DNA of 64,000 nt from Gammaproteobacteria bacterium (GCA_965243395.1 CBDEUS010000001.1:1120001-1184000); one strand, 5' to 3'; counted from the stretch's first letter, positions 4,494-33,676 are shown. Numbers and translations are program-made. Notes: generated from the sequence alone by a model not told the origin.

Positions 4494-5917
4494 TAATGCA
4501 GCATTCCTGTAAATGCATTACGAAACAGCTTGTAACGCGATAATAGTGAGTTGTTTTCATTTGGATAAAAGTGTTTGCTTTCTAAAATATCCCAAACAGG
4601 CTTTTGCATTGCAAGCCAAGCAGCGCCTCGAGATGTAGCTTCTTTGAAATTAGACACAACAACATCTGCCTCGCATAGATCAGCTAAACACTGACACAAA
4701 TGCTCATCTTTGCTCATACCACCTGCAATTAATAATTGGTTGACTTCAACATCATGCATTCGCATTTTTTTAATGTTAATTGTAATTAAAAATGCAATAC
4801 TCTCCATCAATGCAGCCATACATTGATGAATAGAATAATCTTGATAATTTTTTTCAGATTGTAAAAATCCTGCTTGGATATCACTTCTCCAAAATGGCGA
4901 ACCCAAACCACCTATGGTATTTAAAAATATGGGTACATCTTCAACATTTTTCCATTCAATGGATTCTATTTCATTGATACCCCATTCTTCTTCTGCCCAA
5001 GTCATGGCGGCTCCCGCTCCATTTACGGTACCCTCTAAAACATACTCTTCTTCGCTTTCAGAGCTATAAGTAATACTGCTTAACAATTTAGAACTCAATA
5101 TTGGTCCTCGCTTACTTCTAGCTAATATAAAAGCACCCGTACCTATATTGACAAAAGCTGTATCATTCTCAAGCTTTCCATAACCGTAAACTGCACTATT
5201 TTGATCACCATTTACTAGCACCAAAGGATATTCTAGTTTTTTTACTTCGCCATATTTAAAGCTATTGGGTACAGGCTTGGGTAAATAGCGAGTATCAATA
5301 CAAAATGCAGTAAGCAAATCCTCATCCCATGTTTTTGTTTTTAAATTCCAAAGAAGTGTTCTATGAGCATTTGAAAAGTCTATAAAATTTGGTTGATGTT
5401 CAAGCAAATTGAAAATCAAATACGTCGCGAGCGGCCCAAATCTAAGCTGATCATTCTGTTGTTTATTTTTAACCGCTACATCGTTTTCTAGTAGCCACTG
5501 CAACTTAGATGCACCATAGTGAGGTGATAGCGGCAAACCTGTTTTTTGCTTGATAATGTCCTCTTGGAATTCAAAATTTTCTAATTTATTTTGTGTGCGA
5601 GTATCTAACCAACTTAATGCAGGTGTAATTGCCTCACCAGTCAACTTATCCCAGGCAATTACAGTGGAACGTTGCGTAGTTAAAGCAACAGAAATATTCG
5701 TTAAATTACTTTTCCTAATGAATTTTTGTGCTTCATCCAATACAGAGATACACGAATTTAAAATTTGCGTTCCATCTTGCTCGACTTGGAATGAATCACG
5801 ATAGTAGAGATCAACTTCTTGTTGAGATTTGAAAATTGCATTACCTAATAGATCATAGATAATCGCACGGGTGGAGTGAGTACCTTGGTCTACGACAATT
5901 ACATTTGACCAAGACAT
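4493..5917 (-). CDS. glpK: Glycerol kinase-like FGGY carbohydrate kinase
   Basis: DQGTHSTRA, TTQRST, GDQNSA, GTGAF, GLGSPFW motifs; lies in an operon with glpQ and glpD. Confidence 0.8.
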   Translation of the reverse strand: MSWSNVIVVDQGTHSTRAIIYDLLGNAIFKSQQEVDLYYRDSFQVEQDGTQILNSCISVLDEAQKFIRKSNLTNISVALTTQRSTVIAWDKLTGEAITPALSWLDTRTQNKLENFEFQEDIIKQKTGLPLSPHYGASKLQWLLENDVAVKNKQQNDQLRFGPLATYLIFNLLEHQPNFIDFSNAHRTLLWNLKTKTWDEDLLTAFCIDTRYLPKPVPNSFKYGEVKKLEYPLVLVNGDQNSAVYGYGKLENDTAFVNIGTGAFILARSKRGPILSSKLLSSITYSSESEEEYVLEGTVNGAGAAMTWAEEEWGINEIESIEWKNVEDVPIFLNTIGGLGSPFWRSDIQAGFLQSEKNYQDYSIHQCMAALMESIAFLITINIKKMRMHDVEVNQLLIAGGMSKDEHLCQCLADLCEADVVVSNFKEATSRGAAWLAMQKPVWDILESKHFYPNENNSLLSRYKLFRNAFTGMLH

Positions 5918-5929
5918 TTAGATACAGAA

Positions 5930-6523
5930 TTATACTTTTCTCTTGAGATAAAAAAACAATCGAATTCCGAGTAGTACAGCTAAAATAATAGCGTATATCA
6001 TCGGTTCACGTGTATCAATTTTTACCATCCACCAAAAATGCAGTACTGCAAGTATTGCAATTATGTACACCAAACGATGCAATTGAATCCATTTATATTG
6101 CAAACGTTCAACCATTTTATTCGTTGAGGTTACAGCAAGTGGAATAAGCAATATCAACGCAGAAAACCCTGCGGTAATAAAAGGTCGCTTAATTACATCA
6201 TCTATAATTTCACTAAAATCAAAAAACTGATCTAGCACCACATAGGAGGTCACGTGTGTACACACATAAAAGAATGCAAACAGACCAAACATACGTCGAT
6301 ATTGAATAATATTATTCCAACGAAAGATTCTAATTATCGGTGAAAATGCAAGTGTCAATAATAGTATACGTAAGGCCCAATCACCTGTATATCGATTGAT
6401 AGTTTCAATAGGATTAGCACCGAACCCTTCAGAATAGAAGCGATAAGCCAGCAATACCAAAGGCAATAACAATAATATAAAGAGTACGGGCTTAATTATT
6501 TTGCCCGATTTATTAGTTAACAC
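5930..6523 (-). CDS. msrQ: Methionine sulfoxide reductase heme-binding subunit
   Basis: RRMFGLFAFFY, KRPFITAG, LAVTS, WIQLHRLVY; follows msrP. Confidence 0.93.
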   Translation of the reverse strand: MLTNKSGKIIKPVLFILLLLPLVLLAYRFYSEGFGANPIETINRYTGDWALRILLLTLAFSPIIRIFRWNNIIQYRRMFGLFAFFYVCTHVTSYVVLDQFFDFSEIIDDVIKRPFITAGFSALILLIPLAVTSTNKMVERLQYKWIQLHRLVYIIAILAVLHFWWMVKIDTREPMIYAIILAVLLGIRLFFYLKRKV

Positions 6524-6558: not shown

Positions 6559-7524
6559 TTAGAAATTTTTCTTAAGATCCATACCTGTATATAAGCTTGC
6601 CACTTGGTCTCCATAGCCATTAAAAGGTAGTGTTTCTCGTTTTAAAAATTCTCCGATTCTTCGCTCTCGCTTTTGACTCCATCTTGGGTGATCTACTTCT
6701 GGGTTCACATTAGAGTAAAAACCATATTCTCTTGGGCCAGCAACATTCCAGCTTGTTGCAGGCTGCTCCGCCAGAAAGTTAATACTGACGATAGATTTAA
6801 TACTTTTAAATCCATACTTCCAAGGCACAACTAAACGCAAAGGTGCTCCATTTTGATTCGGCAACTCTTTACCATATAAGCCGACAGCTAAAATTGTTAG
6901 CGGATGCATGGCTTCATCAATTCGCAAACCTTCTCGATAAGGCCAGTCTAAAACACTTCGTTTTTGACCTGGCAAATTGTCAGGATCTAAAATAGTTTTG
7001 AATTCAACAAACTTGGCTTTAGAAGTAGGTTTAAATTTCTTCAAAATAGGTCCAAGCTCAATACCCACCCACGGAATTACCATTGACCAAGCTTCTACAC
7101 AACGTAAACGATAAATTCTTTCTTCAAGTTTTGCAGGCGATATAAAATCTTCTAAATCAAATTCACCTGTTTCTTCACACTCACCAGTAACCTCTACACT
7201 CCAGGGTTTAACTTTCAAGTGGTGCGCATTACGTTTTGGATCACCCTTATCTAAGCCTAACTCATAAAAATTATTGTAGCCCGTTACCGCATCAAAAGGA
7301 GTTAACTCATCTTTAGTGGAATATTCGCTTTTGCTGATGTTTTCAAAATTAATATCTGCAGATCCAACTACTGGCCACATGGCTAAAGAAGGTGCCAGAG
7401 ACATTGCAGTAATAGACGCAGAATTTTTTATAAATTTTCTACGTTCTTTGTATATTGCCTGATCGGTAACATCAGACTCGGTTAAATCCATAGGCTTTCG
7501 TACTTTTATCAACATGCTCATCAA
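6559..7524 (-). CDS. msrP: Periplasmic methionine sulfoxide reductase, Mo catalytic subunit
   Basis: Tat motif RRKFIK; [47 protein letters not shown]. Confidence 0.96.
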
Positions 7525-7658: not shown

Positions 7659-8030
7659 TCAGTTATTGGAAAAATATGAACTCAGTAGATCTACCAGTTC
7701 TTTAGGGTCAAATGGCTTCTCGAATACGCCTATTGCTCCATTTTGAATTGCAGTGTCTTTTACGGCTCCATACATAGCGGTGATAAATACAATAGGAATT
7801 ATAGCATTTTCATTGATTAATTTCTGTTGCAATTCAAGACCCGTCATACCAGACATATCTTGATCTAATACTAAAACGCCTTCACTGGGTTTAGGATGTG
7901 CTTCTATAAATGCTTCAGCTGAATGAAATACTTCAACATCATAACCACGTTTTCGTAATATCAAAGTGTGTGAATGACACACTATTCGATCATCATCCAC
8001 TAGATAAATTTTAGTTGCACTTGAAGACAA
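7659..8030 (-). CDS. Single-domain response regulator (FixJ-like receiver, no output domain)
   Basis: LVDDD, LDQDM phosphoacceptor, FITA, EKP. Confidence 0.85.
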   Translation of the reverse strand: MSSSATKIYLVDDDRIVCHSHTLILRKRGYDVEVFHSAEAFIEAHPKPSEGVLVLDQDMSGMTGLELQQKLINENAIIPIVFITAMYGAVKDTAIQNGAIGVFEKPFDPKELVDLLSSYFSNN

Positions 8031-8059
8031 TCTTGTTTCTCAGTATTTAATGTGAATGA

Positions 8060-8087
8060 TTAATGTAGTAATAGCTTACTACATTAA
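8060..8087. repeat. Perfect 12-bp inverted repeat upstream of the receiver gene
   Basis: TTAATGTAGTAA-TAGC-TTACTACATTAA. Confidence 0.6.
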
Positions 8088-8481
8088 ATTCATACATGCG
8101 CTCTTCATTTTTCTCACTCGATGATGTAGAAAATCTTAAATTAATCATTTTTCGCGTAAAGCGCGTTGTACAAGCACTCAGGAAGACCAAATTCGCATAA
8201 GATGGCCCATCATCCAATAGTAACTGAACTTAAATTTTATCTGAGGTTGCTTCTTCAAAAATTGCACTACTAGAAAGTACAACTTTCAATAACAAAGATG
8301 TGGTTAATATGCGTGATAGTGCAGTTTGAATTTTTTCATCCCAATTAAAATTGGATATACACTAAATTGAACATGGGCTAGATAGGACTATTTTAAACAG
8401 CTATGTTTCCTTGTTGAGGTTTTATATAAGTACGTTTTCACCAAGTTTAATACTCAACAAACAAAATTTCTTTCTTAATGT

Positions 8482-8509
8482 TGGGTAGCTAACCAAGGTT
8501 AGCTACCCA
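8482..8509 (-). terminator. Strong hairpin downstream of the beta-propeller gene (terminator or stabiliser)
   Basis: TGGGTAGCTAACC-AA-GGTTAGCTACCCA; no clear U-tract. Confidence 0.5.
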
Positions 8510-8567
8510 CACCCTTAGAAAGGGACCACTAAGATTGGATACTACTTTCTTTTATAAAGTAGATTTT

Positions 8568-10280
8568 TTACCAAGCAGCAATTCCAAAGCCACTACTTGG
8601 AATGTCAGAGTCTGCTTGAACTGGAGGATAGCGACCCTCTAATTGCAAGTCACCCACTCGGCAATCATCATCACCTGTTGGGTTACCAGCCATATCAAGC
8701 TTATCCCAAATCGTATCTTCACCTGCACAATCTTCAATGACTCTGTAAATTGCGATGGTTGTGAAACCACCTGGTGGATACAACCAATCACCTGAGCTAT
8801 TTTGTCCGATTGCAAATGGCACAGGAGTGTTCAATGCATAAAGATATTCAGTGTCCTTTGGATTTTGGCTAAGTGCTAGATCCAATCCACCTGCTTGATA
8901 CAAGAAATCTCTTTGATCGGGCTGAATTATTCCTCTGTCTCCATCGGTTGCTGGAGAGCTGGAAATTCTATGACGGAAGTTTTCCACTACACCAGAGAAT
9001 TGAGGCACACCATCAACAACAGTCACAGGTGGTCCACCGTCTTCCATAATACAAGTTGTTAAATCCATTCTACGAATAGAAATACCTGAGTTGAAGAAGG
9101 CTTGTGCATACACTGTACTGGTACGTGTTGAAATTTGTGACCAACATGTGTCATCACCAAGGTCAGGCTTGTTTGGTTGAATCCGAACTTTGGCACCAAA
9201 CTTGTTGACAGTAAATTGTGAAGTACCGCCTTGACCACGCTGTTGGAAACTACCATGCGTCATTATCACGCAGTCGTTAAAGTTTCGTCCTTTAACAGGC
9301 AATACAGAAAAACCAAAGTTATCATTACCGGAAGTTTCACTTACAACGGGGTTAGTGAAACGTGGAGCAATATCATCTGGGCTAGCTCCATCAAAGTTAT
9401 AACCTAACATTCTCGCTATACCTCTAGCGATACGAGAACGGTCTCGAATAGGAACACCCCTTCTATTTAACTTGATGACTTCCACGATATCATCTTCCGT
9501 ACCATTTCCTAACGCAAAGAAAGTATTACGTTGTGAAACAATCAACTGACGCCCTTCGTTCAAGAATGACATTTGCGCCGGATCACCGTTCTCGTCACGT
9601 GTAGGTCCATGCGCAATTCTTCGGAATGTACCTCTACGATTGTTAAATCTGTAAATCGTAAATGAAGTTCCTTCAAAATTTTCAATCTCTGGACGCTCGC
9701 CACAAGTAATACCTGTGGGGGCTAAGAAACCAACGGGTAAGCCTGGGCAACCGTTGAACTCAACTTCACCGCTACCGGCGTTGACTGTGGCCACTAAGTC
9801 ACGATTAATTCCGAACGCTCTTCGCGAATCGCGATCAACAGAACGTGGTTCTTGACCAACTGTTGATGCTGTATCAGTAAGTGTTACATCACATTTGTTA
9901 ACACGGAATGCAGAAACAGATCCAGCTAAGCTATCACTTGTAGGATCAAATCCAGCATTAATCATCATTACATACTGAGTTCCTCTATACTCTTTTACGA
10001 TTACAGAGAACTGACCTGATGTAACAATGCCGTCATCGTTACCATAGCCACCGGATTCTGCGCGCTGTACTTCTGTAAGAGTTCCATCTGATGCTCTTGC
10101 AAAAACAATCAGGCGGTTTTGCTGTGGATTACCATCATCATCACGCTTTACCCGATTTTCGTTTACATATACCGCGCCTTTGGTTAAGTCATAACCGCAG
10201 TCGCGCGCCATCACACCAGAAAATGGAGCTAATAGAAGCACCATTCCTAGCGATAGCATAATTGATATAGATATTTTCAT
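8568..10280 (-). CDS. Secreted lactonase-like beta-propeller protein
   Basis: GGAGG then ATG at 10280 (MKISISIMLSLGMVLLLAPFSGVMA signal peptide). AVYVNEN...LIVFARASDGTLT...SGGYG and NAGSG repeats are typical of the lactonase propeller family; ends FGIAAW; Cys-rich. Confidence 0.7.
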   Translation of the reverse strand: MKISISIMLSLGMVLLLAPFSGVMARDCGYDLTKGAVYVNENRVKRDDDGNPQQNRLIVFARASDGTLTEVQRAESGGYGNDDGIVTSGQFSVIVKEYRGTQYVMMINAGFDPTSDSLAGSVSAFRVNKCDVTLTDTASTVGQEPRSVDRDSRRAFGINRDLVATVNAGSGEVEFNGCPGLPVGFLAPTGITCGERPEIENFEGTSFTIYRFNNRRGTFRRIAHGPTRDENGDPAQMSFLNEGRQLIVSQRNTFFALGNGTEDDIVEVIKLNRRGVPIRDRSRIARGIARMLGYNFDGASPDDIAPRFTNPVVSETSGNDNFGFSVLPVKGRNFNDCVIMTHGSFQQRGQGGTSQFTVNKFGAKVRIQPNKPDLGDDTCWSQISTRTSTVYAQAFFNSGISIRRMDLTTCIMEDGGPPVTVVDGVPQFSGVVENFRHRISSSPATDGDRGIIQPDQRDFLYQAGGLDLALSQNPKDTEYLYALNTPVPFAIGQNSSGDWLYPPGGFTTIAIYRVIEDCAGEDTIWDKLDMAGNPTGDDDCRVGDLQLEGRYPPVQADSDIPSSGFGIAAW

Positions 10281-10328
10281 ATCCTCCCTCCTAGTAGTCA
10301 TAAGATACGAGACATGCAGTTGCGATCA

Positions 10329-10364
10329 TGCAAAGCAATCCGCAAATAACTTCATCACTGAAGT
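10329..10364 (-). promoter_or_regulatory. Candidate ANTAR-target tandem hexaloop hairpins
   Basis: Minus strand ACTTC[AGTGAT]GAAGT-TATT-TGCGG[ATTGCT]TTGCA; both loops have A1 and G4; adjacent to an ANTAR regulator gene. Confidence 0.55.
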
Positions 10365-10648
10365 GCATGCTTCATTTTTTTGAAATTTAGTTTTGATTGT
10401 TTAAGAACGTCGCCTTAATCAAATCTAACTAAATTTCATTTGCCACTGCGTAAACACGCAGCGAACAAAACTAAAATTCGTAGATTGATTCAGGCTGGTA
10501 CGAGGCCTGTAAGAATTGAAACGTCAAAGTTTTGGACGTTTGATGGCTCTTAATTGTATTAAGAGTAAAGAAATGGACTGTGTTTAGGTCCGTGAGTGAA
10601 TTTCAAAGATTTTGGAAATTACTCTTTTATGCTTATATTTAGCTATGC

Positions 10649-10677
10649 TTTATAGGCCAATAATGCAATTAAATCAA
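10649..10677 (-). promoter_or_regulatory. Putative sigma70 promoter for the beta-propeller gene, giving a ~360-nt leader
   Basis: TTGATT-17 nt-TATAAA on the minus strand. Confidence 0.5.
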
Positions 10678-10791
10678 GGACTAATCGACTTTTTTAGATT
10701 GAATTAAAATTCAATTTTGCGAAACTTGATAAATTTTAGTGAGTTACACCAAGATTTCTTAATTTACTTAAAGCACTTAGCTTAAATAAGG

Positions 10792-11415
10792 TTAATTTAA
10801 CTTGGCTTGGGATCGCTCAAACATATCGCCCGTAAAACGGTTTACATTGTCAATCGATTTCACTAGCTCGGAAGCGATCAAACCTACCTTTTTGCGTTGA
10901 TTTCGAGATTCTGTACGTAACATCTCAAATGCTTGATCACTACTGATGTTAAAGCGCGCCATAAGAATGCCAATCGCAATGCTTGTTTCACGCCCTTGCT
11001 GCAAAGCTATGTTTAATTGTGACTCAGTCTGTTTCAGTGACCTGATATCCTCTGCCCGTTGCATCGCTGACTCAATAGTAGGTAACACATGCTGTACATC
11101 AATAGGTTTGACTAAATATCCTAGTGCACCGGCATTAGCCGCTTCTGTGACAAACTCATCATCTGAATATGCAGAGAGAAATATACAAGAAACATCTGCT
11201 TTATCCCTGAGCTCCAGGGCAGCATCGACGCCTGAAATATCAGGCATTCTAAAATCCATAATGGCAAGATCAGGTTTGACTTCACAACCGATTTCTACAG
11301 CTTGCTTACCATTCTCTGCCTCTAAGACATCGAAATCATACTGACGCAGGTTTTTAGCTAGAGTAACCCGAATTACGCGGTCATCATCCGCGAGTAGTAT
11401 TTGTGCTTTAGACAT
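10792..11415 (-). CDS. REC-ANTAR response regulator (PdtaR/EutV-like)
   Basis: Receiver (LADDD, IMDFRMP, FLSA, YLVKP), coiled coil, ANTAR (IAIGILMARFNISSDQAFEMLRTESRNQRKKV). Confidence 0.92.
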   Translation of the reverse strand: MSKAQILLADDDRVIRVTLAKNLRQYDFDVLEAENGKQAVEIGCEVKPDLAIMDFRMPDISGVDAALELRDKADVSCIFLSAYSDDEFVTEAANAGALGYLVKPIDVQHVLPTIESAMQRAEDIRSLKQTESQLNIALQQGRETSIAIGILMARFNISSDQAFEMLRTESRNQRKKVGLIASELVKSIDNVNRFTGDMFERSQAKLN

Positions 11416-11597
11416 GCTTCTCCTCCAAGTAGCAGACCTAAATTATAATTTTTTTATAGTTATAAAGGATCTTCGTCCTTTTGCTTAACAAGTTTAACAG
11501 ACTTTAATTAAACTTGAATTTACTTTAATTAAATTTTAATTTTGCAATAATTAGCTATAATATTTCTTATTATTATTAATACTTTATCAGCTAATTA

Positions 11598-14500
11598 TCA
11601 TATTGCTTCTAGAATATTGAGCTCTGAAGCTAACATATTTAAAACAACCGGTGGGTAAAGTGTAAGCGTTGCTTTTACATAATTATCGACTTGTTCATAC
11701 TGTAACTCAGCACCTTCTGGTGGCATTAAAGACTGCACCATCCCTAGGCCCACACCCCCACTCTCCAAATTCTCATCAAAATCAAATGAGTCCAGTTTCT
11801 CAATGATATTGGCGACAGCGATCTCAACCTTGTCGTCTTGATTTTTTATTATTACTCGCACTCCATTTGAATCGACAGCTTCTACTGCACGATGCTTCAT
11901 TGCATTGGTGACTAATTCAGAAATAATAAGTGACACTGCTACGGTCTCTTCTTCCCATAACTCTAAATGCTCGGAATCTTCACACAGCACTTCAAAAGAA
12001 ATTTCTTGGGAAAATAATTTACTTGATGCTTGTGTTATACGACTAACAAGTTCAACCAAATTTACTAACCTATACTCAGAATCAATCATCAAATTATTAA
12101 CAATAGAAATAGTATCTACCTGGTTAATAGAAGTTACCAAAACATCACGAAGTTGAGGATACGTATCTAAATTGACTTTTAATAACCCAACGATTGCTTG
12201 TAAATTATTTTTAATACGATGTCGCATTTCACGACTGACTTCATCACGTTGCACCTTAATATGATCAAGCCTCTCTTGCTGGCTTGTACTACGCTGAGTT
12301 ATATCTCGACATAATATTCTCAGCTCTCGTGGCATACCTGCTTGAGCTTGGATCAAACGTAACCGTTGGTGAGTATTTATAAGATCACCCTCTTTTGTAA
12401 GCATTCGCACTTCCATTTCAAACTCATTCACTTGATCTTCAAAAACAACACTAAAGTGACGACTGGCACGACGAATATCATTCTCGTGAATCAAGTTCCA
12501 AATTGGTTTATGCAACAACTCATCTTTTTCATATCCTAAATATTCTGAGCAAAATTGATTCACGGATTGAATAATGCCGTTAGCATCAACTGAGAAATAC
12601 ATATCCGGTGCATTTTCGTATAAATCCTGCAATCTATTTTGACTTCGAAGCAATTGTTGTTCCATTTCAACGCGTTCACTAACATCATGAACAAGAGCCA
12701 AACATGTTTGGTTTGATTTAAATAAATTAGCCGATTTAGACGCTGCCCATTCTGTATGCTTAACTTTTCCTTCGGCATCCTGAATTTGCAAACTAAACTG
12801 GTTTTCATTTGCATCAGCTTCCAACATGTATTTATGCAGTTTATCTAAGGCTTCCTTCTGATTTGGGTGTTTTAATGGCCAGTGGTTTGGTGACTTCCCG
12901 AAGACTTCATTCTCACTCCAACCTAAAATTTGCCTGGCTTGTTCAGACCATCTTGTTATAGCGCCCTCAACATTCCATTCGATGATGGCCGTAGGAGAAT
13001 TTTGCAAATGCAGATCCAATGTTTGTTTGGCTTTTTCCTGTCTTTGTTCAGCAAATTGGCTTTGTAATCGATTTGATATCCACTCCGCCATCATCTGCAC
13101 ATACTGTATTTCACTGTCTGTAAATTCATCTGCACGTGGTTCAATACTAGAAAAATTTAAAGTGCCGTAAGGTCTATTATCCAAATACACTGGAGCACCA
13201 ATATAGGCTTCAAGCTGAAGTTCAGAATACGCGGGATGATGAACAATCTCAGTCTGCTTGGCATGCGCAAATCCCATTGCATTTCTCGATTCAATTAATA
13301 ACTGACAATAGGTCAACCCTAGTTCAAATTTATCACCTGATTGTATTTTATAAGATGATGATGTGGTGTGTACTTGCATCACAGTATAACGATCGCCCTC
13401 TATATAAGAAAAAATTCCACATTTCATATCTAAATGCTGACAACCACTTACTAGCAAACATTGTATTTGGTTATGTAGAGTGGTTTCTTCTACTGAAATA
13501 ATAGAATAAAAAGAATGTAAGGCATCTTCATTACGCCGTAATGCAATTTCAGCATGTTTACGTTTGGTAATATCCGCGGTCGTTCCAATCACTCGTAATG
13601 GTTTTCCATTTTCATCGCGTTCTAAAATTCGGCCACGATCATGCACCCATCGCCATTCACCTGACTTGTGTTTAAGACGATGTTCATGCTCATAAAAATC
13701 GGTATCACCTTGTATGTGAGCATTAAACGCATGTTTTGTTTCGTTTAAGTCATTTTTGTGAATCAAAGATTCCCATGGGTGCTTGTCATGCAATAGCTCT
13801 TCTTTTAAATAACCTATTAATTCATACCAGCGATCATCGAAATAAAATTCATCCTTACCTAAATCTATTTCCCATACACCATCTTGTGTACTTTCCAACG
13901 CAAGCTGTAAGCGTTGCTGCTGTTTGCGCACTTTCTCTGTGGCTTCGAATCGTCGTTGACGGTCTTTTTGATACAAATAAAACGCAATAACAACTGCAGC
14001 AAGAATCGCTAAAAACTTAAGCAGCCCGTTAAGAATGATATCTTTCAATCTTTCAGAGAATAACGTTGCATTATGAAGCGATACCACATCCCACTGTGTA
14101 CCACTAATGGAAGCCACTGCACCTACACGTTGCATATCATCGGGCTCTAAATAAACATCATTGACTAATTCTAAATCTGTGCCTGGAGTAGCTAATTCGA
14201 CAAACCCTGGTACATCTTGGCGCCACAGTACAAGCTGGTAATCAACATTTTGATGTTTGTAAAGTAGTGGTTGTACTAATTCAGGTGGAAAGCTAACACC
14301 GAAAATTCCAAGAAAATTATTTTTGTGATTCCAAGGAACAATAATATTGAAATGGTCATGCTCAGAATTACGATGCATTCGCACAGCGTACTCTATCTGA
14401 CTTTCACTGATTGACGGCAATAAATAAACTTCTGGTTTGTTTTGCTGTGTGCCATCCGAATCAATTATTAATTTGCCTTGCTTATCCCATATAAGAAAAT

Positions 14501-14927
14501 TAAGTGCATCAGGGTAGCTACTACTAATCTCACGATTAAGTATTCTAATTGCGGGAGAATCAGTCTTTTTACTTTGCTTGGCTTCATTTAGTAACTCAGT
14601 ATGATTCTCAGCAAACATACCCAGACTGTATTCCATCTGCTCAACATAATTCGCTATTTCATTAGCTGCAGACCATGATGAGCGCTGCATCAATTCTGTT
14701 TGAGACTTTTCGAATTGCGAGTAGTGCTCCCAACCACTCCACAGAAGCAAAGCTAAAACAACAGACAATAGGAACACTACAACTGAAAGCGGAACCCTTT
14801 GCTTAACAAAAGGTAACTTCGCAGTTGAAGCAAACCAAGTTTTGCTATCAGCCGAGATAACTCCTCCTTTACGGCAACCTCCCAACCAATGCGTTACTCT
14901 TATAATTCTTACTCGATGTACGAGCAC
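11598..14927 (-). CDS. Membrane sensor histidine kinase: periplasmic domain, PAS-GAF-PAS-PAS, HisKA_2
   Basis: Two TM segments; PAS/PAC (DGVWE...RWVHDRG...DIT); GAF (YIGAPV...YGTLNFSS); H-box EMRHRIKNNLQ; N-box ELVTNAMKH. Start uncertain. Confidence 0.9.
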   Translation of the reverse strand: MLVHRVRIIRVTHWLGGCRKGGVISADSKTWFASTAKLPFVKQRVPLSVVVFLLSVVLALLLWSGWEHYSQFEKSQTELMQRSSWSAANEIANYVEQMEYSLGMFAENHTELLNEAKQSKKTDSPAIRILNREISSSYPDALNFLIWDKQGKLIIDSDGTQQNKPEVYLLPSISESQIEYAVRMHRNSEHDHFNIIVPWNHKNNFLGIFGVSFPPELVQPLLYKHQNVDYQLVLWRQDVPGFVELATPGTDLELVNDVYLEPDDMQRVGAVASISGTQWDVVSLHNATLFSERLKDIILNGLLKFLAILAAVVIAFYLYQKDRQRRFEATEKVRKQQQRLQLALESTQDGVWEIDLGKDEFYFDDRWYELIGYLKEELLHDKHPWESLIHKNDLNETKHAFNAHIQGDTDFYEHEHRLKHKSGEWRWVHDRGRILERDENGKPLRVIGTTADITKRKHAEIALRRNEDALHSFYSIISVEETTLHNQIQCLLVSGCQHLDMKCGIFSYIEGDRYTVMQVHTTSSSYKIQSGDKFELGLTYCQLLIESRNAMGFAHAKQTEIVHHPAYSELQLEAYIGAPVYLDNRPYGTLNFSSIEPRADEFTDSEIQYVQMMAEWISNRLQSQFAEQRQEKAKQTLDLHLQNSPTAIIEWNVEGAITRWSEQARQILGWSENEVFGKSPNHWPLKHPNQKEALDKLHKYMLEADANENQFSLQIQDAEGKVKHTEWAASKSANLFKSNQTCLALVHDVSERVEMEQQLLRSQNRLQDLYENAPDMYFSVDANGIIQSVNQFCSEYLGYEKDELLHKPIWNLIHENDIRRASRHFSVVFEDQVNEFEMEVRMLTKEGDLINTHQRLRLIQAQAGMPRELRILCRDITQRSTSQQERLDHIKVQRDEVSREMRHRIKNNLQAIVGLLKVNLDTYPQLRDVLVTSINQVDTISIVNNLMIDSEYRLVNLVELVSRITQASSKLFSQEISFEVLCEDSEHLELWEEETVAVSLIISELVTNAMKHRAVEAVDSNGVRVIIKNQDDKVEIAVANIIEKLDSFDFDENLESGGVGLGMVQSLMPPEGAELQYEQVDNYVKATLTLYPPVVLNMLASELNILEAI

Positions 14928-15055: not shown

Positions 15056-17347
15056 TTACCATTTAATTCCATGGTGCTCAATGGCTTTAATTTTGGCTTC
15101 TGAATTGCTCAATTCCGGAATATCTAATCCATCCAGCTTGTTACGTAATTCTTGTGTTGCTTCTCTTGCCTCAGATGCATTTCGAATTGCAGTAGGAGTG
15201 ATAAGAACGAGAAGCTCTGTGCGCTCAGATGACTTGGTTGTAGTACCGAACAATGGGCCCAGTACTGGTAAATTACGTAATCCTGGGACACCTATGTTGC
15301 CATCAGAATTTGTATCTTGAATAAGGCCCCCAAGTACAATTGTATCGCCACTCGGGACAGAAACTGAGGTGCTTACTTCACGTTGATCAATTGTAGGTGA
15401 ATCTATTGCAGATGAAGTCGTGGGATTTGCAGTACGTATATTTTGATAGATATCCATTACAACCGTACCATTTTGACTCACTCTGGGTGCTACTTGCAGC
15501 GTCACACCTGTTTCAACAAACTGAATAGTACTTGTCACTAAATCACTTGTACCCGTATTCGTAGATTCTGAAGTACGCACAGGGACTTGATCACCTACAT
15601 TTATTGAAGCCGTATGATTATCAAGCACCATTAATGACGGTGATGAAAGAACTTGCATCTTGTCATCTTGAGCAAGCGCACTTAGAACAGCTCGAACAAT
15701 TCCACCCGAATCTACTAATGAATAAGAAAATCCACCGTTTGTAGTCGCACCAATTAGTCCTGCATCTGCACCACCTACACCATCACCTAATCTACCAATA
15801 CCCGTATTTCCATCAATGTCATTATTTCTGAAAAACCACTGTGTTCCATATTCCAAATCACCTGTGAGTTCTACTTCTACAATAGTAGCTTCAAGCAATA
15901 CTTGTAATGGCGAAATATCTAAACGTTTAATTGCATCTTCTATGTCTTTATATTCTTCATTTGTGGCTTTTACTACCAAAGCATTATTTTCTTCATCAGC
16001 AATAATTTTAATTGGACTGTTATTATTACCACTTCCATTCGTTCCACTATTGAATGTATCTGAAGAAGAAAAACGTTCTGTATTAGGACTTAAACTTCCT
16101 GGCAGTGAAGCACCTGCACCAGTTGGAACACCTGCGCTTATTCCATCAGCATCGCCACTAATAAATCCAGAATCCGAATTACCAATACCAGAGCTTTGAC
16201 TCACTCCACCCGATAATCCAGGTGCTAGGGCAGCAGGATCTTGTCCTTCTTGCGTGGATACGTCCGCATCAAATAACTCCGACAATATTTGCGCTAAGTA
16301 TCCAGCACGTAAATTTTGTACAAAATATACGTGCAAGGTGCGTGCAATGGTGTTATCGACCCGATCTAAGCGATCGATCCACTGTGAAACCGTATTTAAA
16401 TAACGACGCTGTGGAGTTATAGCGAGAATTGCATTTAAACGTTCTATTTCAACAAAGCGTAAAATATCGACTTGTTTCTCTTGTCCACTAAAACCAAAAA
16501 TTGAATTTAATTCTTCTATAACTTTTTTAGCAGAAGATGAGGTCAATCTGAAAATGGCAGTAGACATCCCTTTGAATTGATCTACATCAAATATCTCCAC
16601 TGTATCCAGCATATTCTTTAATTCCGCCTGGGTACCCGAAACTAACAAAATATTTCTACCAGGATCTGTTTGGATCATGGCATTTTCACCTTGCAAGGAA
16701 CGCAGAACGTTTTTCATTTCTGTTGCTGAAATATACTGCAATGGCACAACAATAATTTGATAACCTTTTTGACGATCTAACTCATAAGAAGGCGTTACTA
16801 CACTACTTAAGCCCTCGCTGGCTGGAAGTATTTGAAAAATTCCTTCATTTTCAGCCAGTACCGCATTGTTAGCTTTGAGTATATTTTCCATCACGGGTAT
16901 CAATGCCTCTTTAGCCAATGGTCGACCCGTTTTAAGGCTGACCGTGCCTGTTACACGCTCATCAACCACATATGCACGACCCAACAAATCTCCAAGAATA
17001 GTCGCAGCAACCTCTTCAATGGGTGCATCTTGAAACATTAATGTGATATCACCAGTAGCACTATCGGATAAACCTGATGATCCAGGTCTTGCTGTAAACG
17101 TACCCGTTCCGGGATAAAACTCTGCAGCACGCTCTTCAGGTTTAGTAGGAGTATTAGATTCTCCATCTGCTGATGTAGCAGTATCAACTTCTATATTTTT
17201 TGTTGAAGTCTTAGCAACATCATCTACGCTAACTTCTGGCTGATTATTAGAAGAATTTGTTGTCGTGCAACCACTGAAAATAAAAACCAACGCTACAAAT
17301 ACAAAATGTAAGCATTTTTGAAAATCTGAAAGTTTGAATCTATTCAT
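15056..17347 (-). CDS. gspD: T2SS secretin, probably a lipoprotein
   Basis: Secretin C-domain (QVLLEATIVEV, SSPSLMVLDN, LGGLI, TELLVLITP); lipobox IFSGC. Likely start ATG 17347. Confidence 0.93.
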   Translation of the reverse strand: MNRFKLSDFQKCLHFVFVALVFIFSGCTTTNSSNNQPEVSVDDVAKTSTKNIEVDTATSADGESNTPTKPEERAAEFYPGTGTFTARPGSSGLSDSATGDITLMFQDAPIEEVAATILGDLLGRAYVVDERVTGTVSLKTGRPLAKEALIPVMENILKANNAVLAENEGIFQILPASEGLSSVVTPSYELDRQKGYQIIVVPLQYISATEMKNVLRSLQGENAMIQTDPGRNILLVSGTQAELKNMLDTVEIFDVDQFKGMSTAIFRLTSSSAKKVIEELNSIFGFSGQEKQVDILRFVEIERLNAILAITPQRRYLNTVSQWIDRLDRVDNTIARTLHVYFVQNLRAGYLAQILSELFDADVSTQEGQDPAALAPGLSGGVSQSSGIGNSDSGFISGDADGISAGVPTGAGASLPGSLSPNTERFSSSDTFNSGTNGSGNNNSPIKIIADEENNALVVKATNEEYKDIEDAIKRLDISPLQVLLEATIVEVELTGDLEYGTQWFFRNNDIDGNTGIGRLGDGVGGADAGLIGATTNGGFSYSLVDSGGIVRAVLSALAQDDKMQVLSSPSLMVLDNHTASINVGDQVPVRTSESTNTGTSDLVTSTIQFVETGVTLQVAPRVSQNGTVVMDIYQNIRTANPTTSSAIDSPTIDQREVSTSVSVPSGDTIVLGGLIQDTNSDGNIGVPGLRNLPVLGPLFGTTTKSSERTELLVLITPTAIRNASEAREATQELRNKLDGLDIPELSNSEAKIKAIEHHGIKW

Positions 17348-17736
17348 AAAAACCTTATGTTTAACAAGCAAACAAAGAATTGTTTGATAAACACCAAACA
17401 ATTACATAATTAAATGTAAGTTGTATTAAACACGATGGTTAACGCACAATTAATTGCACGCTACCTCCTCCAATATATTTATTATTTTCGATACTTAAGA
17501 GGCTATTGCTCTGAAGCTAATTGCACCAAATTAGTGAGGGCGGGGTCTGGGGCCGTAAAAGGTGCTTATTTATCAATTATTTGTCTACACGTTACGCGGC
17601 AGACTCTAAAGAGTCAATGGAAATCTAAAATACAGTATAAATCTTAAGGTTAAATTATTTTTATTGGGATTAAATAATCAGTGCTTTATTAGTGAGTTAA
17701 CTAAGGACTACAAACAAAGTAAAAAATTTTTAGATT

Positions 17737-27368: not shown

Positions 27369-29153
27369 TTATTTAATTAAATATGGTGTATCAGTATCTT
27401 TATTATTAAAGTACATTTGAGTTACGGGGCCAACCACGCCATCAGATGGCAATTTATTAGCAATTTGGAAAGCACGCACCTGATCTACAAGCTCTTCGTT
27501 ATATATAAATGGGTTGATTGATGTTGGCTTGCGGCCTTGAAGTTTGGCAAGCTTTTGTTCAATGAGTGCTACTGCTTCACCTTCAAAACCTGGATTGATG
27601 TAACGCACACCTGCTTGCAAAGGCCGCCAAAGCATTTCAAATTGACCACTCCAGTTTTCTTCAACTTCTGCTATCGGCACCAGTTTATAATTGTCTTTAT
27701 TAGTGACAATTGCATAATCATCTTCAATAGATACTAAAACTATATAACTCGGTCCAAAGTGTTCATCCCTGCCTTTTAATAAAACAGGTCTATTAAGACC
27801 GATGACTTTTTGCATTGAACCAATTCCCTGGTAACACTGTAATTGATTATTTAAAGCATGCTCACAAGGATTAGAATCTTCGCTTGTATAATTTATTCCC
27901 CAGATTCTGAACAATTGCTTATAAGCCTTACCATAATTAGTAAGTTGCAAAGAATCGTCGACTTCTATGGTCTTAATATTTTCTTGATCCTTCGAAGCCA
28001 ATGTAGTTTTCTTAGATGATATATTTGTTGTCTTGGTCTTCTCGACAAAGTTAGCTGGTTTTTCTTTGATAAAAACAGTCTCTATTGCACTATTTGCTAT
28101 GCCCTCTTGTTGAACAATTATTTCTTTTTTATGTTTTTGTGGATTTTTATTTCGAGCTTTTGCATGCTCTCTAATTATTGGTTCTTTAGTTATACTTTCT
28201 TCGCTAACTTCATTTTCAACGCTCTCATTAAGAGAAATTAGCTTGAAATTATAGTTTTGATATGCAAAAACCGCTGTACCAGAAATTAATACTGCAAAAA
28301 TGCTTGCCGCCAAAGCCTTGGGAAACATATCGCTATTAGATGGTTCCCGATCAAAAACTTCCCTTGCTGATTGCTTGATTATTTTTGAAGTAATCTTTGG
28401 AGTACTTAATGTATAAGCACCCAATAAAACTCTGTCGCATAGAATATTGATTAAACGTGGCACACCCTTTGTAATTTTAAATATCTGCTTGATATTCGAT
28501 TCAGTGAATACTTTATGTCTGGCTCCAGCAATCGTTAAACGATGATTGATGTAGTAATTTGTTTCTTTTAGATTTAGCGGCCCAATATGAAAACGTGCCG
28601 TAATGCGTTGATTTACTTGCTCTAGCTCAGGTTTAGCGAGTAGTTCTTTTAATTCTGGTTGTCCGATTAAAATAATTTGCAGAAGTTTTTGCTCATTTGT
28701 TTCAAGGTTTGTAAGAGCACGGATATGCTCCAAGGCGTCAACACTTAAATTTTGCGCCTCGTCAATTACTAATACAGTATTTCTTCCTCTTGCATGCGTT
28801 TCTATAAGATATGTATTTATCTTTTTTACATATTCTTTAATGCTTGGCTGAAATGTAGAATATGAGAGCTTTAATTCATCACAGATTGAAGCCATTAATT
28901 CCATGGGTGAAAACTTGGGGTTAATTACAAAAGCGATATCCGTATTTTCTGGTAGCTGCTCAAACATACATCGACAGATAGTGGTCTTACCTGTCCCAAT
29001 ATCGCCCGTTAGGCAAACAAACCCGCCTTTACGAGTAATGCCGTAAAGCAAATGCGCGAGTGCTTCTTCATGCTGCTTACTTAAGAACAAGTATTTTGGA
29101 TTCGGAGCAATCGAAAAAGCAGACTCATCTATATTAAAAAAAGACCCATACAT
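27369..29153 (-). CDS. gspA: ExeA/GspA AAA ATPase with a peptidoglycan-binding domain
   Basis: MY..FF...AFSIAPNP, GDIGTGKT, IDEAQNL, GQPEL, GVPRLIN; C-terminal FQ...DGVVGP. Likely start MYGSFF. Confidence 0.92.
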   Translation of the reverse strand: MYGSFFNIDESAFSIAPNPKYLFLSKQHEEALAHLLYGITRKGGFVCLTGDIGTGKTTICRCMFEQLPENTDIAFVINPKFSPMELMASICDELKLSYSTFQPSIKEYVKKINTYLIETHARGRNTVLVIDEAQNLSVDALEHIRALTNLETNEQKLLQIILIGQPELKELLAKPELEQVNQRITARFHIGPLNLKETNYYINHRLTIAGARHKVFTESNIKQIFKITKGVPRLINILCDRVLLGAYTLSTPKITSKIIKQSAREVFDREPSNSDMFPKALAASIFAVLISGTAVFAYQNYNFKLISLNESVENEVSEESITKEPIIREHAKARNKNPQKHKKEIIVQQEGIANSAIETVFIKEKPANFVEKTKTTNISSKKTTLASKDQENIKTIEVDDSLQLTNYGKAYKQLFRIWGINYTSEDSNPCEHALNNQLQCYQGIGSMQKVIGLNRPVLLKGRDEHFGPSYIVLVSIEDDYAIVTNKDNYKLVPIAEVEENWSGQFEMLWRPLQAGVRYINPGFEGEAVALIEQKLAKLQGRKPTSINPFIYNEELVDQVRAFQIANKLPSDGVVGPVTQMYFNNKDTDTPYLIK

Positions 29154-29430
29154 ATTTTTTTTATATTTATAATTATCAGCAAACACAGAATCAAGAAGCC
29201 GAGGAATAGCCTCTTAATCATTAAGCTTATTTTTTGAGCTTACTCTTATAAAGAGCGTGTATTCAACCAACTAAGTGTAAGGTTGTTTAAGCTTATATGT
29301 ACGAATAATAGGAAATATTTATTAAGCTGGTGTGGCAAATGGAATTACATAACTGCTTTGCCGGTTGGAATAATCAATATATCGCTTCGAAATAGTAATA
29401 TTCAAGCCTAAACAGACTTATCAGTAATAA

Positions 29431-31788
29431 CTATGCCTGTTTAAAACGATTATCGATTTTACTTAATTCGAAGATAGCGGTTTCTTGAGATTTTATAATT
29501 AATTCATCAGCGGTTTTTGGTTTGCTGATAAAATAACCTTGCCCATAATCACAGTTTAAATCTTTAAGGATATTAAGCTGTTCTATAGTTTCAATTCCTT
29601 CTGCAACTATTTTTTTATTCAATGCCTTGCCCATGGAAATAATGGCTTTTACGATGGCACGCGATTCTTCATCGTTAGTTAAATCTCTAATGAACAGTTG
29701 ATCAATTTTGAGAGTTTGTGCTGGTAGTTTTTTAAGATAACTCAGCGAAGAATAACCCTTCCCAAAATCATCAATGGCAATTTCGATGCCGAGCTTATTA
29801 ATTTCTTTAAAAATAGAATAAGTACGGGGATCATCTTCTAGAAAAAGACTCTCGGTTAACTCAAATTCAACATTGGTTGTATGAATATCAAAATCATTTA
29901 GCCGAGACTCTATGTCATGAATAAAATTTTCATGACGTAACTGACGTGCAGATATGTTTATAGAAACTTTGGGTAAAGCTTTATAATCTTGCTGCCATAA
30001 TTCACATTGTCGAATCGTTTCTTTTATGACCCAATAACCCAACTCCACGATGTAACCATTATCCTCGGCATAAGCAATAAATTTATCTGGTCGAATTGGT
30101 CCTTTTTTACCATGATTCCATCGCAATAAAACTTCTGCCCCCGATATTTCTCCAGTTATTAGGTCCAGTTGAGGTTGAAAAACAGGAAACAATTCATTTC
30201 GTTCTATGGCATGGCGAAGATCGGCTTCTAATTCTGCCTTTTCCCAAACATCATCTTGCATTGAGTCCGCAAAGTTTACCAGGCGTTTGCGTCCCTGCTG
30301 TTTGGCTTTATACATTGCAATATCGGCCTTTTGAATTAATTCCTCAAAAGTGCGCCCATCTTTTGGAAATTCTGCAATACCTATGCTTGCGCCAATAAAA
30401 TGCTCGTAATTTTCAATATAAAAAGCAGCAGATAAATCCTGAATGATTTTCTCAGCTGCGCCATTTACACGCTGATGTTCTCCATAAATAGGCATAATAA
30501 CTACAAACTCATCACCGCCAAATCGAGAAAGAAAGTCATATCCGCTTACACAGTTTTTAATTCTATGGGATACCTCAACGAGCAACTTATCCCCAGTTGC
30601 GTGACCCTGTGTATCATTGATGACTTTGAAACGATCTAAATCGATAAATAGAAATGCAAATTTATCGTTCTCATTTTCTGACTTTTTAATAATAGCGTTT
30701 ATATAATCGTTCAGATGCTGTCGATTAGGCAATTTGGTTAAATCATCATAGTTGGCTTGATAGTGAAGCTTCCCTTGACGTTTTTTCAATTCATCTGACA
30801 TTACATTGAACGAATCACCTAGCGCCTGAAATTCATCATCACTATGGAATTGAACCTTTTCATCAAAGTTGTTGCTTGCTATTTTTTTAGTAACTTCTTT
30901 AAGCTTTTCAAGAGGTACGAGAATCCTTGAGATTTGATGCAAGGTTATCCAAGTTACGAGCAATATTGCTAAAATTAAGGATGGTAAAAGTATCTTTGCA
31001 AATGCATTTGAAGGGGCAAATAGCTTATTCAAGGGTTGAGCATAATAGATACTCCAACTTTCTGTTAGATACTTGCCATTGAGATATAAGTCCCATGATG
31101 CGACAGAATATCCATTTCTTTCATCATGAAAGGTAAAGATTGAGCTTGAACCACTATCGGATACTTCAAAATAATTTTTCGAATGTGAATAGAATTCTTT
31201 GCTAGAGCAGTTTAACGCGCCTAAATTCTGAATCACGATACAGGCATCTTCATAACCTGAAAAAATTTCATCTTCCCCAAATAAATAATCTTTATCAATT
31301 TTTGCACTGATCATATACGTTGAGCTTAATCCAGTTATCATTCGCGCCAAATTAACATCTAAATTATTTTCACTATCACGAGTAATAATAATTTTAGTGT
31401 TCCCCGAATTCATATGATTTACATCAGATAAACTCAAATTTGATGGGATTGGGCTGATTGATACAGAATTAATTGTGCTATTTTCCGTATAAATTTTTAA
31501 CGATTCATTATTTAAATCAAGAAGGCCTTGTGAATTTTTATCTTGCGTTTTAAATTGAATAAATCTTTTTAACTGATCTTCTGCAATTAATAGTCGATCA
31601 AATATGGCCATGCCATAGTTTTTTCCGGACGTTGCTAAATACTCATGAGTCTGCTTTTGTAAATGAGTGCTGACATAGTTATAGGAAAGAAACCCAACAA
31701 CGAAAACTGGAATGATGGAGGCAATGACAAATAATATAAATAATCGTCGTGCAACCCGACTGGTTAGGAAATTTAATGTGACTTGCAT
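29431..31788 (-). CDS. Membrane HAMP-GGDEF-EAL c-di-GMP enzyme
   Basis: Two TM segments, HAMP, SRFGGDEF, EVLLRW, DDFGKGYSS, AEGIE, QGYF. Confidence 0.93.
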   Translation of the reverse strand: MQVTLNFLTSRVARRLFILFVIASIIPVFVVGFLSYNYVSTHLQKQTHEYLATSGKNYGMAIFDRLLIAEDQLKRFIQFKTQDKNSQGLLDLNNESLKIYTENSTINSVSISPIPSNLSLSDVNHMNSGNTKIIITRDSENNLDVNLARMITGLSSTYMISAKIDKDYLFGEDEIFSGYEDACIVIQNLGALNCSSKEFYSHSKNYFEVSDSGSSSIFTFHDERNGYSVASWDLYLNGKYLTESWSIYYAQPLNKLFAPSNAFAKILLPSLILAILLVTWITLHQISRILVPLEKLKEVTKKIASNNFDEKVQFHSDDEFQALGDSFNVMSDELKKRQGKLHYQANYDDLTKLPNRQHLNDYINAIIKKSENENDKFAFLFIDLDRFKVINDTQGHATGDKLLVEVSHRIKNCVSGYDFLSRFGGDEFVVIMPIYGEHQRVNGAAEKIIQDLSAAFYIENYEHFIGASIGIAEFPKDGRTFEELIQKADIAMYKAKQQGRKRLVNFADSMQDDVWEKAELEADLRHAIERNELFPVFQPQLDLITGEISGAEVLLRWNHGKKGPIRPDKFIAYAEDNGYIVELGYWVIKETIRQCELWQQDYKALPKVSINISARQLRHENFIHDIESRLNDFDIHTTNVEFELTESLFLEDDPRTYSIFKEINKLGIEIAIDDFGKGYSSLSYLKKLPAQTLKIDQLFIRDLTNDEESRAIVKAIISMGKALNKKIVAEGIETIEQLNILKDLNCDYGQGYFISKPKTADELIIKSQETAIFELSKIDNRFKQA

Positions 31789-33484: not shown

Positions 33485-33676
33485 TTAACCAGTTGACTCA
33501 TTCACATTAGTTTTTTCACGCTTTATGCGCTCATAGATTTCTTCACGATGCACTGCAACATCGCGTGGAGCATTTACTCCAATACGCACCTGATTACCCT
33601 TAACTCCTAACACTGTGACGGTTACATCATCACCAATCATCAGTGTTTCACCAACTCTCCTGGTCAAAATCAGCAT
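33485..33676 (-). CDS. csrA: Carbon storage regulator
   Basis: [16 protein letters not shown]...VRIGVNAP...VHREEIY. Confidence 0.98.

Follow-up and report, generated by a model that had tools for sequence, protein, structure and literature searches.

A conserved structured leader RNA between an ANTAR regulator gene and a secreted-type propeller gene in uncultured Gammaproteobacteria

The 64,000-nucleotide (nt) stretch of DNA analyzed here, referred to as the window, comes from a Gammaproteobacteria bacterium (GCA_965243395.1, CBDEUS010000001.1:1120001-1184000) and has a GC content of 37.7%. It carries a locus in which the gene for a REC-ANTAR response regulator is followed by a long structured leader RNA and the gene for a secreted-type propeller protein. 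All features of this locus are on the minus strand; in order of transcription, they are the gspD gene of a type II secretion system (T2SS), the gene for a HisKA_2 sensor kinase, the REC-ANTAR gene, a promoter, the leader, and the propeller gene. The initial annotation of this DNA described the kinase, the regulator, the promoter, the leader, a Shine-Dalgarno (SD) sequence, and the propeller in this order, and each of these elements is present. The island is conserved in a clade of uncultured, low-GC Gammaproteobacteria. The firm result of the analysis is a new conserved leader RNA, together with a new genomic setting for a system resembling PdtaSR and EutVW.

Relatives of the locus were collected by one profile scan of genome contigs with a 26-sequence propeller profile, which yielded 12 loci. 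With the exception of one misfit bin, all are from metagenome-assembled genomes of uncultured Gammaproteobacteria, two of them binned as Thiotrichales. The misfit, L001, is a 2798-nt contig that carries a propeller of 77% identity and the first part of a downstream di-haem protein gene; its assignment to the Acidimicrobiales is probably wrong, because every other locus is gammaproteobacterial. The leader comparisons encompass 12 leaders (that of the window and 11 homologous ones), of which L002-L008 are the close leaders. All 11 loci for which upstream DNA is available keep the order of ANTAR gene, leader, and propeller; of the loci that reach far enough in each case, 10/10 have the kinase gene ahead of the ANTAR gene and 9/9 have gspD ahead of the kinase. 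The linkage of kinase, regulator, and propeller noted in the initial annotation, and its placement of T2SS genes directly upstream, extend to other genomes. The lowest identities across the loci are 50% for the propeller, 60% for the ANTAR protein, 41% for the kinase, and 59% for GspD. By a softer count, no fewer than 17 of 56 strong propeller clusters have a longest contig equal in length to that of one of the 120 listed ANTAR clusters.

The regulator and propeller genes are separated by a 511-nt spacer that contains both the promoter and the leader. The promoter (10649..10677, minus strand), as read from the sequence, is of the sigma-70 type, with TTGATT at 10677-10672 and TATAAA at 10654-10649 separated by 17 nt; transcription is predicted to start near 10642. 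The two hexamers and the 17-nt spacer are kept in 12/12 leaders (with the variant TATAAC in L002), and the promoter that had been proposed for the window is a feature of the whole set.

The leader itself (10281..10642, minus strand), defined by folding and comparison, is about 360 nt long. Its hairpins, from the 5' end, are H0 (10594-10624), H1 (10575-10591), H2 (10547-10565), H3 (10519-10541), H4 (10491-10509), H5 (10439-10469), and H6 (10382-10437). After H6, a three-way junction is closed by GCAUGC (10370-10365) pairing with GCAUGU (10317-10312); in the close group, the junction is closed by GCAUGY/GCAUGU. The 5' hairpin H0 varies in sequence among leaders, H1 is a GGAC/GUCC stem with a loop of 9-12 nt, and H2 is found in the window and in L002-L008. 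All 12 leaders have a loop of exactly 9 nt in H4, and H1 and H4 also show partial conservation of loop sequence. The imperfect duplex of H6 covers about 56-70 nt in most leaders. The SD sequence AGGAGGGAGGA (10282..10292, minus strand) ends 1 nt before the ATG at 10280; its block GACUACUAGGAGGGAGGAUAUG recurs without change in L003-L007 and with one altered base in L002. The hairpin-packed leader of about 360 nt and the strong GGAGG of the SD, both described in the initial annotation, are thus found as stated.

Both stability and comparison support the structure of the leader. The leader RNA of the window is more stable than 100/100 shuffles (z -4.22), and the same series of hairpins appears in single-sequence folds of 12/12 leaders. 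Hairpins H1, H3, and H4 are present in all 12 with compensatory changes, which is the leader covariation that the initial annotation proposed to look for. In H3, these changes include CG to UA and UA to GC; in H4, they include CG to UA, AU to GC, and GC to AU. In an alignment of the H3-H4 region (62 columns, 12 leaders), 89.6% of cells pair and 6/12 pairs are changed on both sides. The covariation score of this region is reached by 0/500 shuffles, and shifting the pairing partners cuts pairing to 15-38%; these controls leave phylogenetic relatedness in place, and two to three deep lineages are sampled. A search of the leader against Rfam gives no match at E values up to 10 (Rfam is not confirmed to hold a model of ANTAR targets), and the whole window at gathering scores gives only noise and three tRNAs. 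In 241 kb, nhmmer with the leader and a covariance model of the H3-H4 module both recover the 12 known copies alone. The leader is a real, previously undescribed conserved structured RNA, since its hairpin series recurs with compensatory changes and matches no Rfam family. The initial annotation saw no U-tract terminator after the hairpins; a scan of the minus strand from 8300 to 11700 likewise predicts no intrinsic terminator.

A possible upstream open reading frame lies within the leader at about 10363-10383 (minus strand), at the conserved sequence AUGARGCAUG, and in the window encodes MKHALQ followed by a stop. Inspected by eye in relatives, the frame has 6-25 codons, begins with AUG or GUG, and has no SD sequence. 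Because its length and start codon vary, this reading was set aside; the stem that closes the junction more probably accounts for the conservation of AUGARGCAUG.

The REC-ANTAR response regulator (10792..11415, minus strand) has 207 amino acids. It matches the Pfam family Response_reg with 89.3 bits (E 2.4e-25; cut-off 30.2) and ANTAR (PF03861) with 45.2 bits (E 7.9e-12; cut-off 27.3), and it is therefore a member of the REC plus ANTAR class. The best solved relatives, aligned over residues 5-185, are 6WSH (E 3.8e-30), identified as EutV in PMC8934654, and Rv1626, 1S8N (E 2.2e-28). Among the RNA-contact residues of EutV that are given in the available part of PMC8934654, R168, N173, and R175 are kept, while Y164 is changed to F, K143 to R, and R177 to K. 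The G4-contacting residues R142, K149, and E160 of EutV align to G, I, and S. Residues R142, S145, R167, R171, R174, and K176 of the ANTAR domain are invariant in the subfamily (i.e., the protein of the window and relatives named NasT or PdtaR by their sources). The idea of an altered G4 pocket was dropped, because the same residues are invariant or frequent in these NasT- and PdtaR-named relatives; for this reason, the contact-residue changes mark no special specificity. RNA binding is the sole output of ANTAR domains known from the accessible portions of PMC3369931 and PMC8934654.

The sensor histidine kinase (11598..14927, minus strand; Pfam and translation) has 1109 amino acids. Its domain order is a weak dCache_1 domain, PAS domains, GAF, PAS, HisKA_2, and HATPase_c_2, and its Pfam matches are PAS_3, PAS, GAF, HisKA_2, and HATPase_c_2. 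HisKA_2 scores 39.9 bits (cut-off 22.3), HATPase_c_2 scores 24.2 bits and is under its cut-off of 27.4, and dCache_1 scores 24.7 bits, under a 45-bit cut-off. Two hydrophobic stretches, read by eye as transmembrane (TM) segments, flank the dCache_1 match. The combination of HisKA_2 with an ATPase domain, encoded next to an ANTAR gene in 10/10 loci that reach the kinase, is that of the PdtaS and EutW kind. Unlike the soluble cytoplasmic sensors of this kind, the kinase of the window has the hydrophobic stretches and the weak dCache_1 match. A GAF-PAS-HisKA_2 core is common to the kinases of L009, L010, and L003, whereas the N-terminal Cache/TM part is missing in L009-L012. The orthologue in L009 (1635-4022; 795 amino acids) is PAS-GAF-PAS-HisKA_2, and that in L010 (5672-7591; 639 amino acids) is GAF-PAS-HisKA_2; neither has a Cache match. 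The extracytoplasmic signal suggested in the initial annotation accordingly suits the Cache/TM kinase of the window's close subgroup but not L009 or L010, and it is limited to that subgroup because the kinases of these two loci lack the Cache part.

The propeller protein (8568..10280, minus strand) has 570 amino acids; its open reading frame (ORF) spans 8568-10301, and translation is placed at the SD-preceded ATG at 10280. The N-terminus is signal-like by eye. The protein was earlier called a Cys-rich secreted protein of 570 residues; the length and the signal-like start stand, and Cys-rich here means nine cysteines, eight of which are invariant in the family and one nearly invariant. There are 57 relatives, all at least 42% identical except one weak match, and 16 of the 57 carry a precomputed PF10282 assignment. 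With Pfam and NCBIfam, the propeller of the window itself matches no family above threshold, and Pfam does not place it in PF10282. An AlphaFold2 model built from 26 sequences has a predicted local distance difference test score (pLDDT) of 76.7 and a predicted template modelling score (pTM) of 0.82. Its best Foldseek matches in the PDB are 6-phosphogluconolactonase-like seven-bladed propellers (3FGB, 3SCY, 1RI6, 6NAU, and PpgL, 6IGB), with E values of 1e-8 to 1e-6, TM scores by target of 0.55-0.68, and identities of 9-12%. The ten best named Atlas neighbors all belong to the lactonase family (0.93-0.95). The lactonase-like fold named in the initial annotation, for which AlphaFold and Foldseek had been proposed as a check, is thus recovered in the model as a seven-bladed propeller. 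Lactonase-like propeller is a fair label for the predicted fold and does not imply enzyme activity; the label follows from the relatives, the fold, and the Atlas neighbors rather than from a Pfam match of the window protein.

Ten related loci have, on the 3' side of the propeller gene, a gene for a di-haem DHOR protein (PF06537) together with two small ORFs that are likewise conserved (at 11024-13865 in L003, and in the corresponding regions of L001, L004-L008, and L010-L012). All three genes are lacking in the window, and the roughly 540 nt of non-coding sequence at 8031-8567 has no tblastn match to a DHOR remnant. In L002, a 798-amino-acid ORF (10981-13377) joins a DHOR-like N-terminus of about 140 residues to a second propeller paralogue, which is 79% identical to the propeller of the window; no second copy of the leader precedes this ORF. 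A role of the propeller in periplasmic or surface redox is a reasonable guess, and it may be exported by the neighboring T2SS.

How the ANTAR pair relates to the leader can be read in several ways. The reading favored here, tentatively, is that the adjacent ANTAR system acts on the leader by some, non-classical, route. A T2SS operon is followed by a PdtaS-like HisKA_2 kinase that in the subgroup of the window is extended by a predicted periplasmic Cache domain and extra PAS domains, and the propeller gene has its own conserved sigma-70 promoter and a leader with seven conserved hairpins and a junction before a very strong SD. On this reading, the propeller operon would be controlled after initiation through this leader, and the phosphorylated form of the adjacent ANTAR regulator would be the factor that binds it. 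The route might be translation, RNA stability, or hairpins outside the canonical motif. The promoter has the position, after the regulator gene and ahead of the leader, that is known from other pairs of regulator and leader. The gene order also persists through the divergence of the proteins and a change in the domain composition of the kinase. Long structured leaders are rare and so are RNA-binding regulators of this type, and their occurrence side by side in every locus argues for a link between the two. The analysis establishes the genes, their synteny, and the conservation of the promoter and of the RNA structure; we infer the transcription start, the contact between regulator and RNA, the direction of regulation, the signal, and T2SS export.

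Several observations weigh against this reading, and they begin with the recognition element. As defined in the available portions of PMC3369931 and PMC8164766, an ANTAR target consists of two hairpins of at least 3 bp whose hexaloops have A1 and G4, joined by a short linker (5-12 nt in eut sites, 2-25 nt in actinobacteria). In the cases covered there and in 10.1101/660928, the second of the two hairpins either is in competition with a terminator or extends over part of the start region. The initial annotation proposed such an element in the window, and its hairpins, with the loops AGUGAU and AUUGCU and a 4-nt spacing, are present to the base within the three-way junction (10329..10364, minus strand). 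Hairpin 1 is ACUUC[AGUGAU]GAAGU (10364-10349) and hairpin 2 is UGCGG[AUUGCU]UUGCA (10344-10329); the pair extends from 84 to 49 nt before the ATG and ends 36 nt before the SD. The reading of these hairpins as a functional, canonical ANTAR site that this lineage has recently acquired agrees with the published shape, in that each stem has 5 bp and both loops have A1 and G4, and with the position of the leader directly 3' of an ANTAR gene. A dual A1/G4 hexaloop with stems of at least 5 bp is also rare by chance, occurring in 10/5000 dinucleotide shuffles of the leader and three times in 128 kb (both strands of the window). The 4-nt linker, however, is shorter than the 5-12 nt of eut sites, where a 3-nt linker abolished induction (PMC3369931).

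Comparison with the relatives makes a canonical site in the window quite unlikely. At the homologous place, 0/11 leaders have the canonical dual A1/G4 motif, even though the regulators of those loci are 60-88% identical to that of the window, and the dual motif falls in an indel-rich, hypervariable insert of the leader alignment. The stem of hairpin 1 is conserved and covaries, but among relatives the loop differs freely in length and sequence (e.g., AUCA, UUAAAAU, UUAU, UGG, and GUUGGA). Hairpin 2 has a pair probability of about 0.01 in the ensemble, and a rival hairpin, UUGCGG..UCGCAA, is better by 3.2 kcal/mol. Both hexaloops can be closed to tetraloops through an A-U pair. The hairpins neither compete with a terminator nor overlap the SD or start codon, and binding at this site would thus be without obvious consequence. 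Among the seven close leaders (L002-L008), a dual motif elsewhere occurs in L008 only, with 3-bp stems and about 200 nt before the ATG; among all homologous leaders, L008 and L009 alone have duals away from the homologous place. No recurrent dual A1/G4 hairpins are found anywhere in the 12 loci (e.g., before the kinase or DHOR gene). The initial annotation had made its proposal depend, among other things, on conservation of the gene linkage and of the A1/G4 identity of the loops; the former is conserved and the latter is not.

A looser definition of the target brings in further leaders. A single hexaloop with G4 has been redefined as the minimal ANTAR site in the portion of PMC8934654 available. 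Single A1/G4 hexaloops lie just before the SD in L003, L004, L006, and L007 (UCUU[AAUGUU]AAGA) and over the SD in L009-L012 (UUUC[AUGGGA]GGAG). Such hexaloops near the SD are no more than chance would give: one occurs in 15-24% of shuffles of the final 100 nt, and the nine leaders with a single hexaloop trace back to about three independent origins in six lineages, a number that is not significant. The loops of H1, H3, and H4 are 9-12 nt long and do not have A1/G4.

The remaining points against the favored reading concern linkage and sampling. Synteny covers the whole neighborhood, from the T2SS to a single-domain receiver gene and a pair of genes resembling MsrPQ, and the linkage is for this reason suggestive but weak when taken alone. 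The loci include no case of natural loss of the ANTAR pair or of the leader, and the sample comprises only 12 loci. ANTAR regulators such as PdtaR also act on unlinked targets, according to the accessible text of 10.1101/660928. The absence of the RNA element that defines the family, and that holds across phyla, counts against the favored reading with about the same force with which the constant pairing of leader and regulator counts for it. Classical ANTAR antitermination, in which a dual A1/G4 element competes with a terminator, is not supported, because there is neither a terminator nor a conserved dual hexaloop; if the regulator acts on the leader, the mechanism is not the classical one.

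A narrower form of the favored reading holds that the ANTAR regulators of this clade control a T2SS-linked propeller (and di-haem) operon without a terminator, through leader elements that are not of the A1/G4 type. In this specific form, it is unlikely. An example of such an element is the H3-H4 pair, with stems of 5-7 bp and 9-nt loops that lie 9-15 nt apart in 12/12 leaders.

The main alternative is that control resides at the promoter and in general RNA-binding proteins. The sequence upstream of and over the -35 hexamer (10671..10747, minus strand) has conserved boxes, seen as invariant or near-invariant columns of the 12-sequence alignment: GTAACTCACTAA at 10747-10736 and TTAGTCCTTGATTT at 10684-10671. 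In the close group only, there is a palindrome, TTGAATTTTAATTCAA, at 10714-10699 (TGAAT-N4-ATTCA). The boxes GTAAC.YAYTAAT and TTAGTGCTTGATTT are invariant in 12/12 loci. Together, the boxes around -35 and the palindrome are likely to be the site of a DNA-binding factor that acts at the promoter. On this basis, the ANTAR pair might be a mere syntenic neighbor whose targets are elsewhere in the genome, and the propeller operon might be under a promoter factor and general RNA binders, foremost among them CsrA; this explanation is plausible, if somewhat doubtful. The invariant boxes and the palindrome speak for it, as does the failure to find any conserved ANTAR motif, although no transcription factor is assigned to the boxes and the place of the regulator gene before a long structured leader in every locus is left unexplained.

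The evidence for CsrA varies with the lineage. The window has a csrA/rsmA gene (33485-33676, minus strand; 63 amino acids; PF02599, E 1.2e-26) in the order alaS, aspartokinase, csrA, and tRNA genes, and the organism therefore has a Csr system. The consensus for CsrA obtained by systematic evolution of ligands by exponential enrichment is RUACARGGAUGU (PMC4347634, from the part available). Each leader described here, like CsrA/RsmA leaders, has GGA at its SD (two or three such motifs), and those of the distant group have it in upstream hairpin loops as well. The leader of L009 (about 5252-5263) has a 12/12 match to the consensus, AUACAGGGAUGU, a score reached by 0/1199 GGA-centered 12-mers of the window, and in L010-L012 a hairpin loop located 50-57 nt ahead of the ATG contains UACA(A/C)GGACAGU. 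Unlike in CsrA/RsmA leaders, however, the strong consensus match is restricted to L009, and the sites of the window are ordinary: the best CsrA-like 12-mer at the SD of the window and its close relatives scores 8/12, which about 12% of the GGA sites of the window reach, and the leader shows no enrichment in GGA (5 seen, 3.6 expected). The promoter-factor and CsrA readings can coexist with ANTAR control.

The hairpins might also serve the stability or processing of the mRNA without any dedicated regulator, with protective stems at the 5' end and H6 as an RNase III site. This is improbable, more so than any of the preceding alternatives. As this explanation would have it, the stems of the leader are strung out independently of one another instead of meeting in a junction with conserved unpaired bases, H6 has the span given above in most leaders, and no known riboswitch or leader family matches. 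Yet the position of each hairpin is kept, and the fixed loop length of H4 and the partly conserved loop sequences of H1 and H4 suggest a partner that recognizes them; nor does this explanation account for the linkage to the ANTAR pair. Taken as a whole, the interpretation in the initial annotation stands for the triad of genes, the promoter, the structured leader, and the fold of the propeller; it does not stand for the A1/G4 recognition element, which is not conserved in homologs.

The genes around the island complete the conserved neighborhood. The T2SS cluster upstream is complete (minus strand; Pfam), from gspA at 27369-29186 through gspD, in the order gspA, gspB, E, F, G, H, two pseudopilins, K, an L-like gene, M, an unassigned ORF, and gspD. 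The secretin gene gspD, the last of the cluster (15056..17401, minus strand), has the Pfam domains Secretin, Secretin_N, and GspD N0. Downstream of the propeller, at its 3' side, lies the single-domain receiver gene (7659-8030, minus strand), which is kept in 10 loci (L002-L008 and L010-L012). It is accompanied by the MsrP/MsrQ-like pair, composed of an Oxidored_molyb gene (6559-7524) and a Ferric_reduct gene (5930-6523), both on the minus strand and kept in six loci (L002-L006 and L008). A HAMP-GGDEF-EAL gene (29431-31788, minus strand) heads the T2SS cluster and is located between a pseudopilin-like ORF (31796-32284) and gspA.

ANTAR regulators are widespread, and the system described here can be compared with several characterized ones. 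EutW, the partner of EutV in Enterococcus faecalis, is a HisKA_2 kinase. Like EutV/EutW, the window has a regulator composed of REC and ANTAR domains, a regulator gene that adjoins its candidate target leader, and a kinase with the HisKA_2 phospho-acceptor. EutV stabilizes dual A1/G4 hexaloops that compete with intrinsic terminators, as reported in the available text of PMC3369931 and PMC8934654. In contrast to EutV/EutW, the window has no terminator, no conserved pair of hexaloops, a target other than eut genes, and a kinase with Cache, TM, PAS, and GAF parts.

The domain order of PdtaS is GAF-PAS-HisKA_2-ATPase. This core of the PdtaS/PdtaR system (Rv1626, 1S8N) is the architecture of the 639-residue kinase of L010, and it is embedded in the longer kinase of the window. 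The window departs from PdtaS/PdtaR in the additional N-terminal Cache, TM, and PAS parts of its kinase, in having the kinase and regulator genes side by side, in the T2SS and the structured leader that adjoin these genes, and in hairpins that are clear of the SD and start codon. In mycobacteria, ANTAR RNAs affect translation through overlap with start sites and not by way of terminators (10.1101/660928, as far as its accessible text goes).

In the NasR-nasF and NasT-type systems, a regulator gene, a separate promoter, a structured leader, and the regulated gene follow one another, and this layout is the same as that of the window. Their leaders have a hexaloop hairpin before an intrinsic terminator and serve nitrogen assimilation, whereas the leader of the window has neither a conserved motif nor a terminator. 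Unlike the NasR/NasT systems, the window has a histidine kinase as its sensor and a secreted-type propeller as its candidate target, which in relatives is paired with a di-haem protein. The substrates of NasR and AmiR are described in PMC3369931, of which a part was available. The propeller of the window shares its predicted fold with the PF10282 propellers (YbhE/Pgl, 1RI6; PpgL, 6IGB; and the Bacteroides proteins 3FGB and 3SCY) at identities of 9-12%, but it is about 200 residues longer than those enzymes and has nine conserved cysteines and a signal-like sequence.

Independent of any link to the ANTAR pair, the 360-nt leader is a well-defined conserved structured RNA without an Rfam family, and the propeller family, with its 57 clusters and its di-haem partner, is without an assigned function. 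None of the matches listed in the literature search, as far as their indexed text goes, connects ANTAR with either a Cache-HisKA_2 kinase or type II secretion. The present case combines an occurrence in Gammaproteobacteria with a membrane Cache sensor, a connection to a secretion system, and a candidate target leader with neither a terminator nor conserved hexaloops. To our knowledge, the ANTAR targets identified so far belong, with few exceptions, to nitrogen, ethanolamine, and amide metabolism or to the lipid and metabolic genes of mycobacteria. If the adjacent ANTAR system does act on the leader, there would be a wider range of signals and RNA features to look for in ANTAR systems; if it does so through elements that are not of the A1/G4 type, the system would represent a new mode of RNA recognition and a new class of ANTAR output, driven by a periplasmic Cache sensor.

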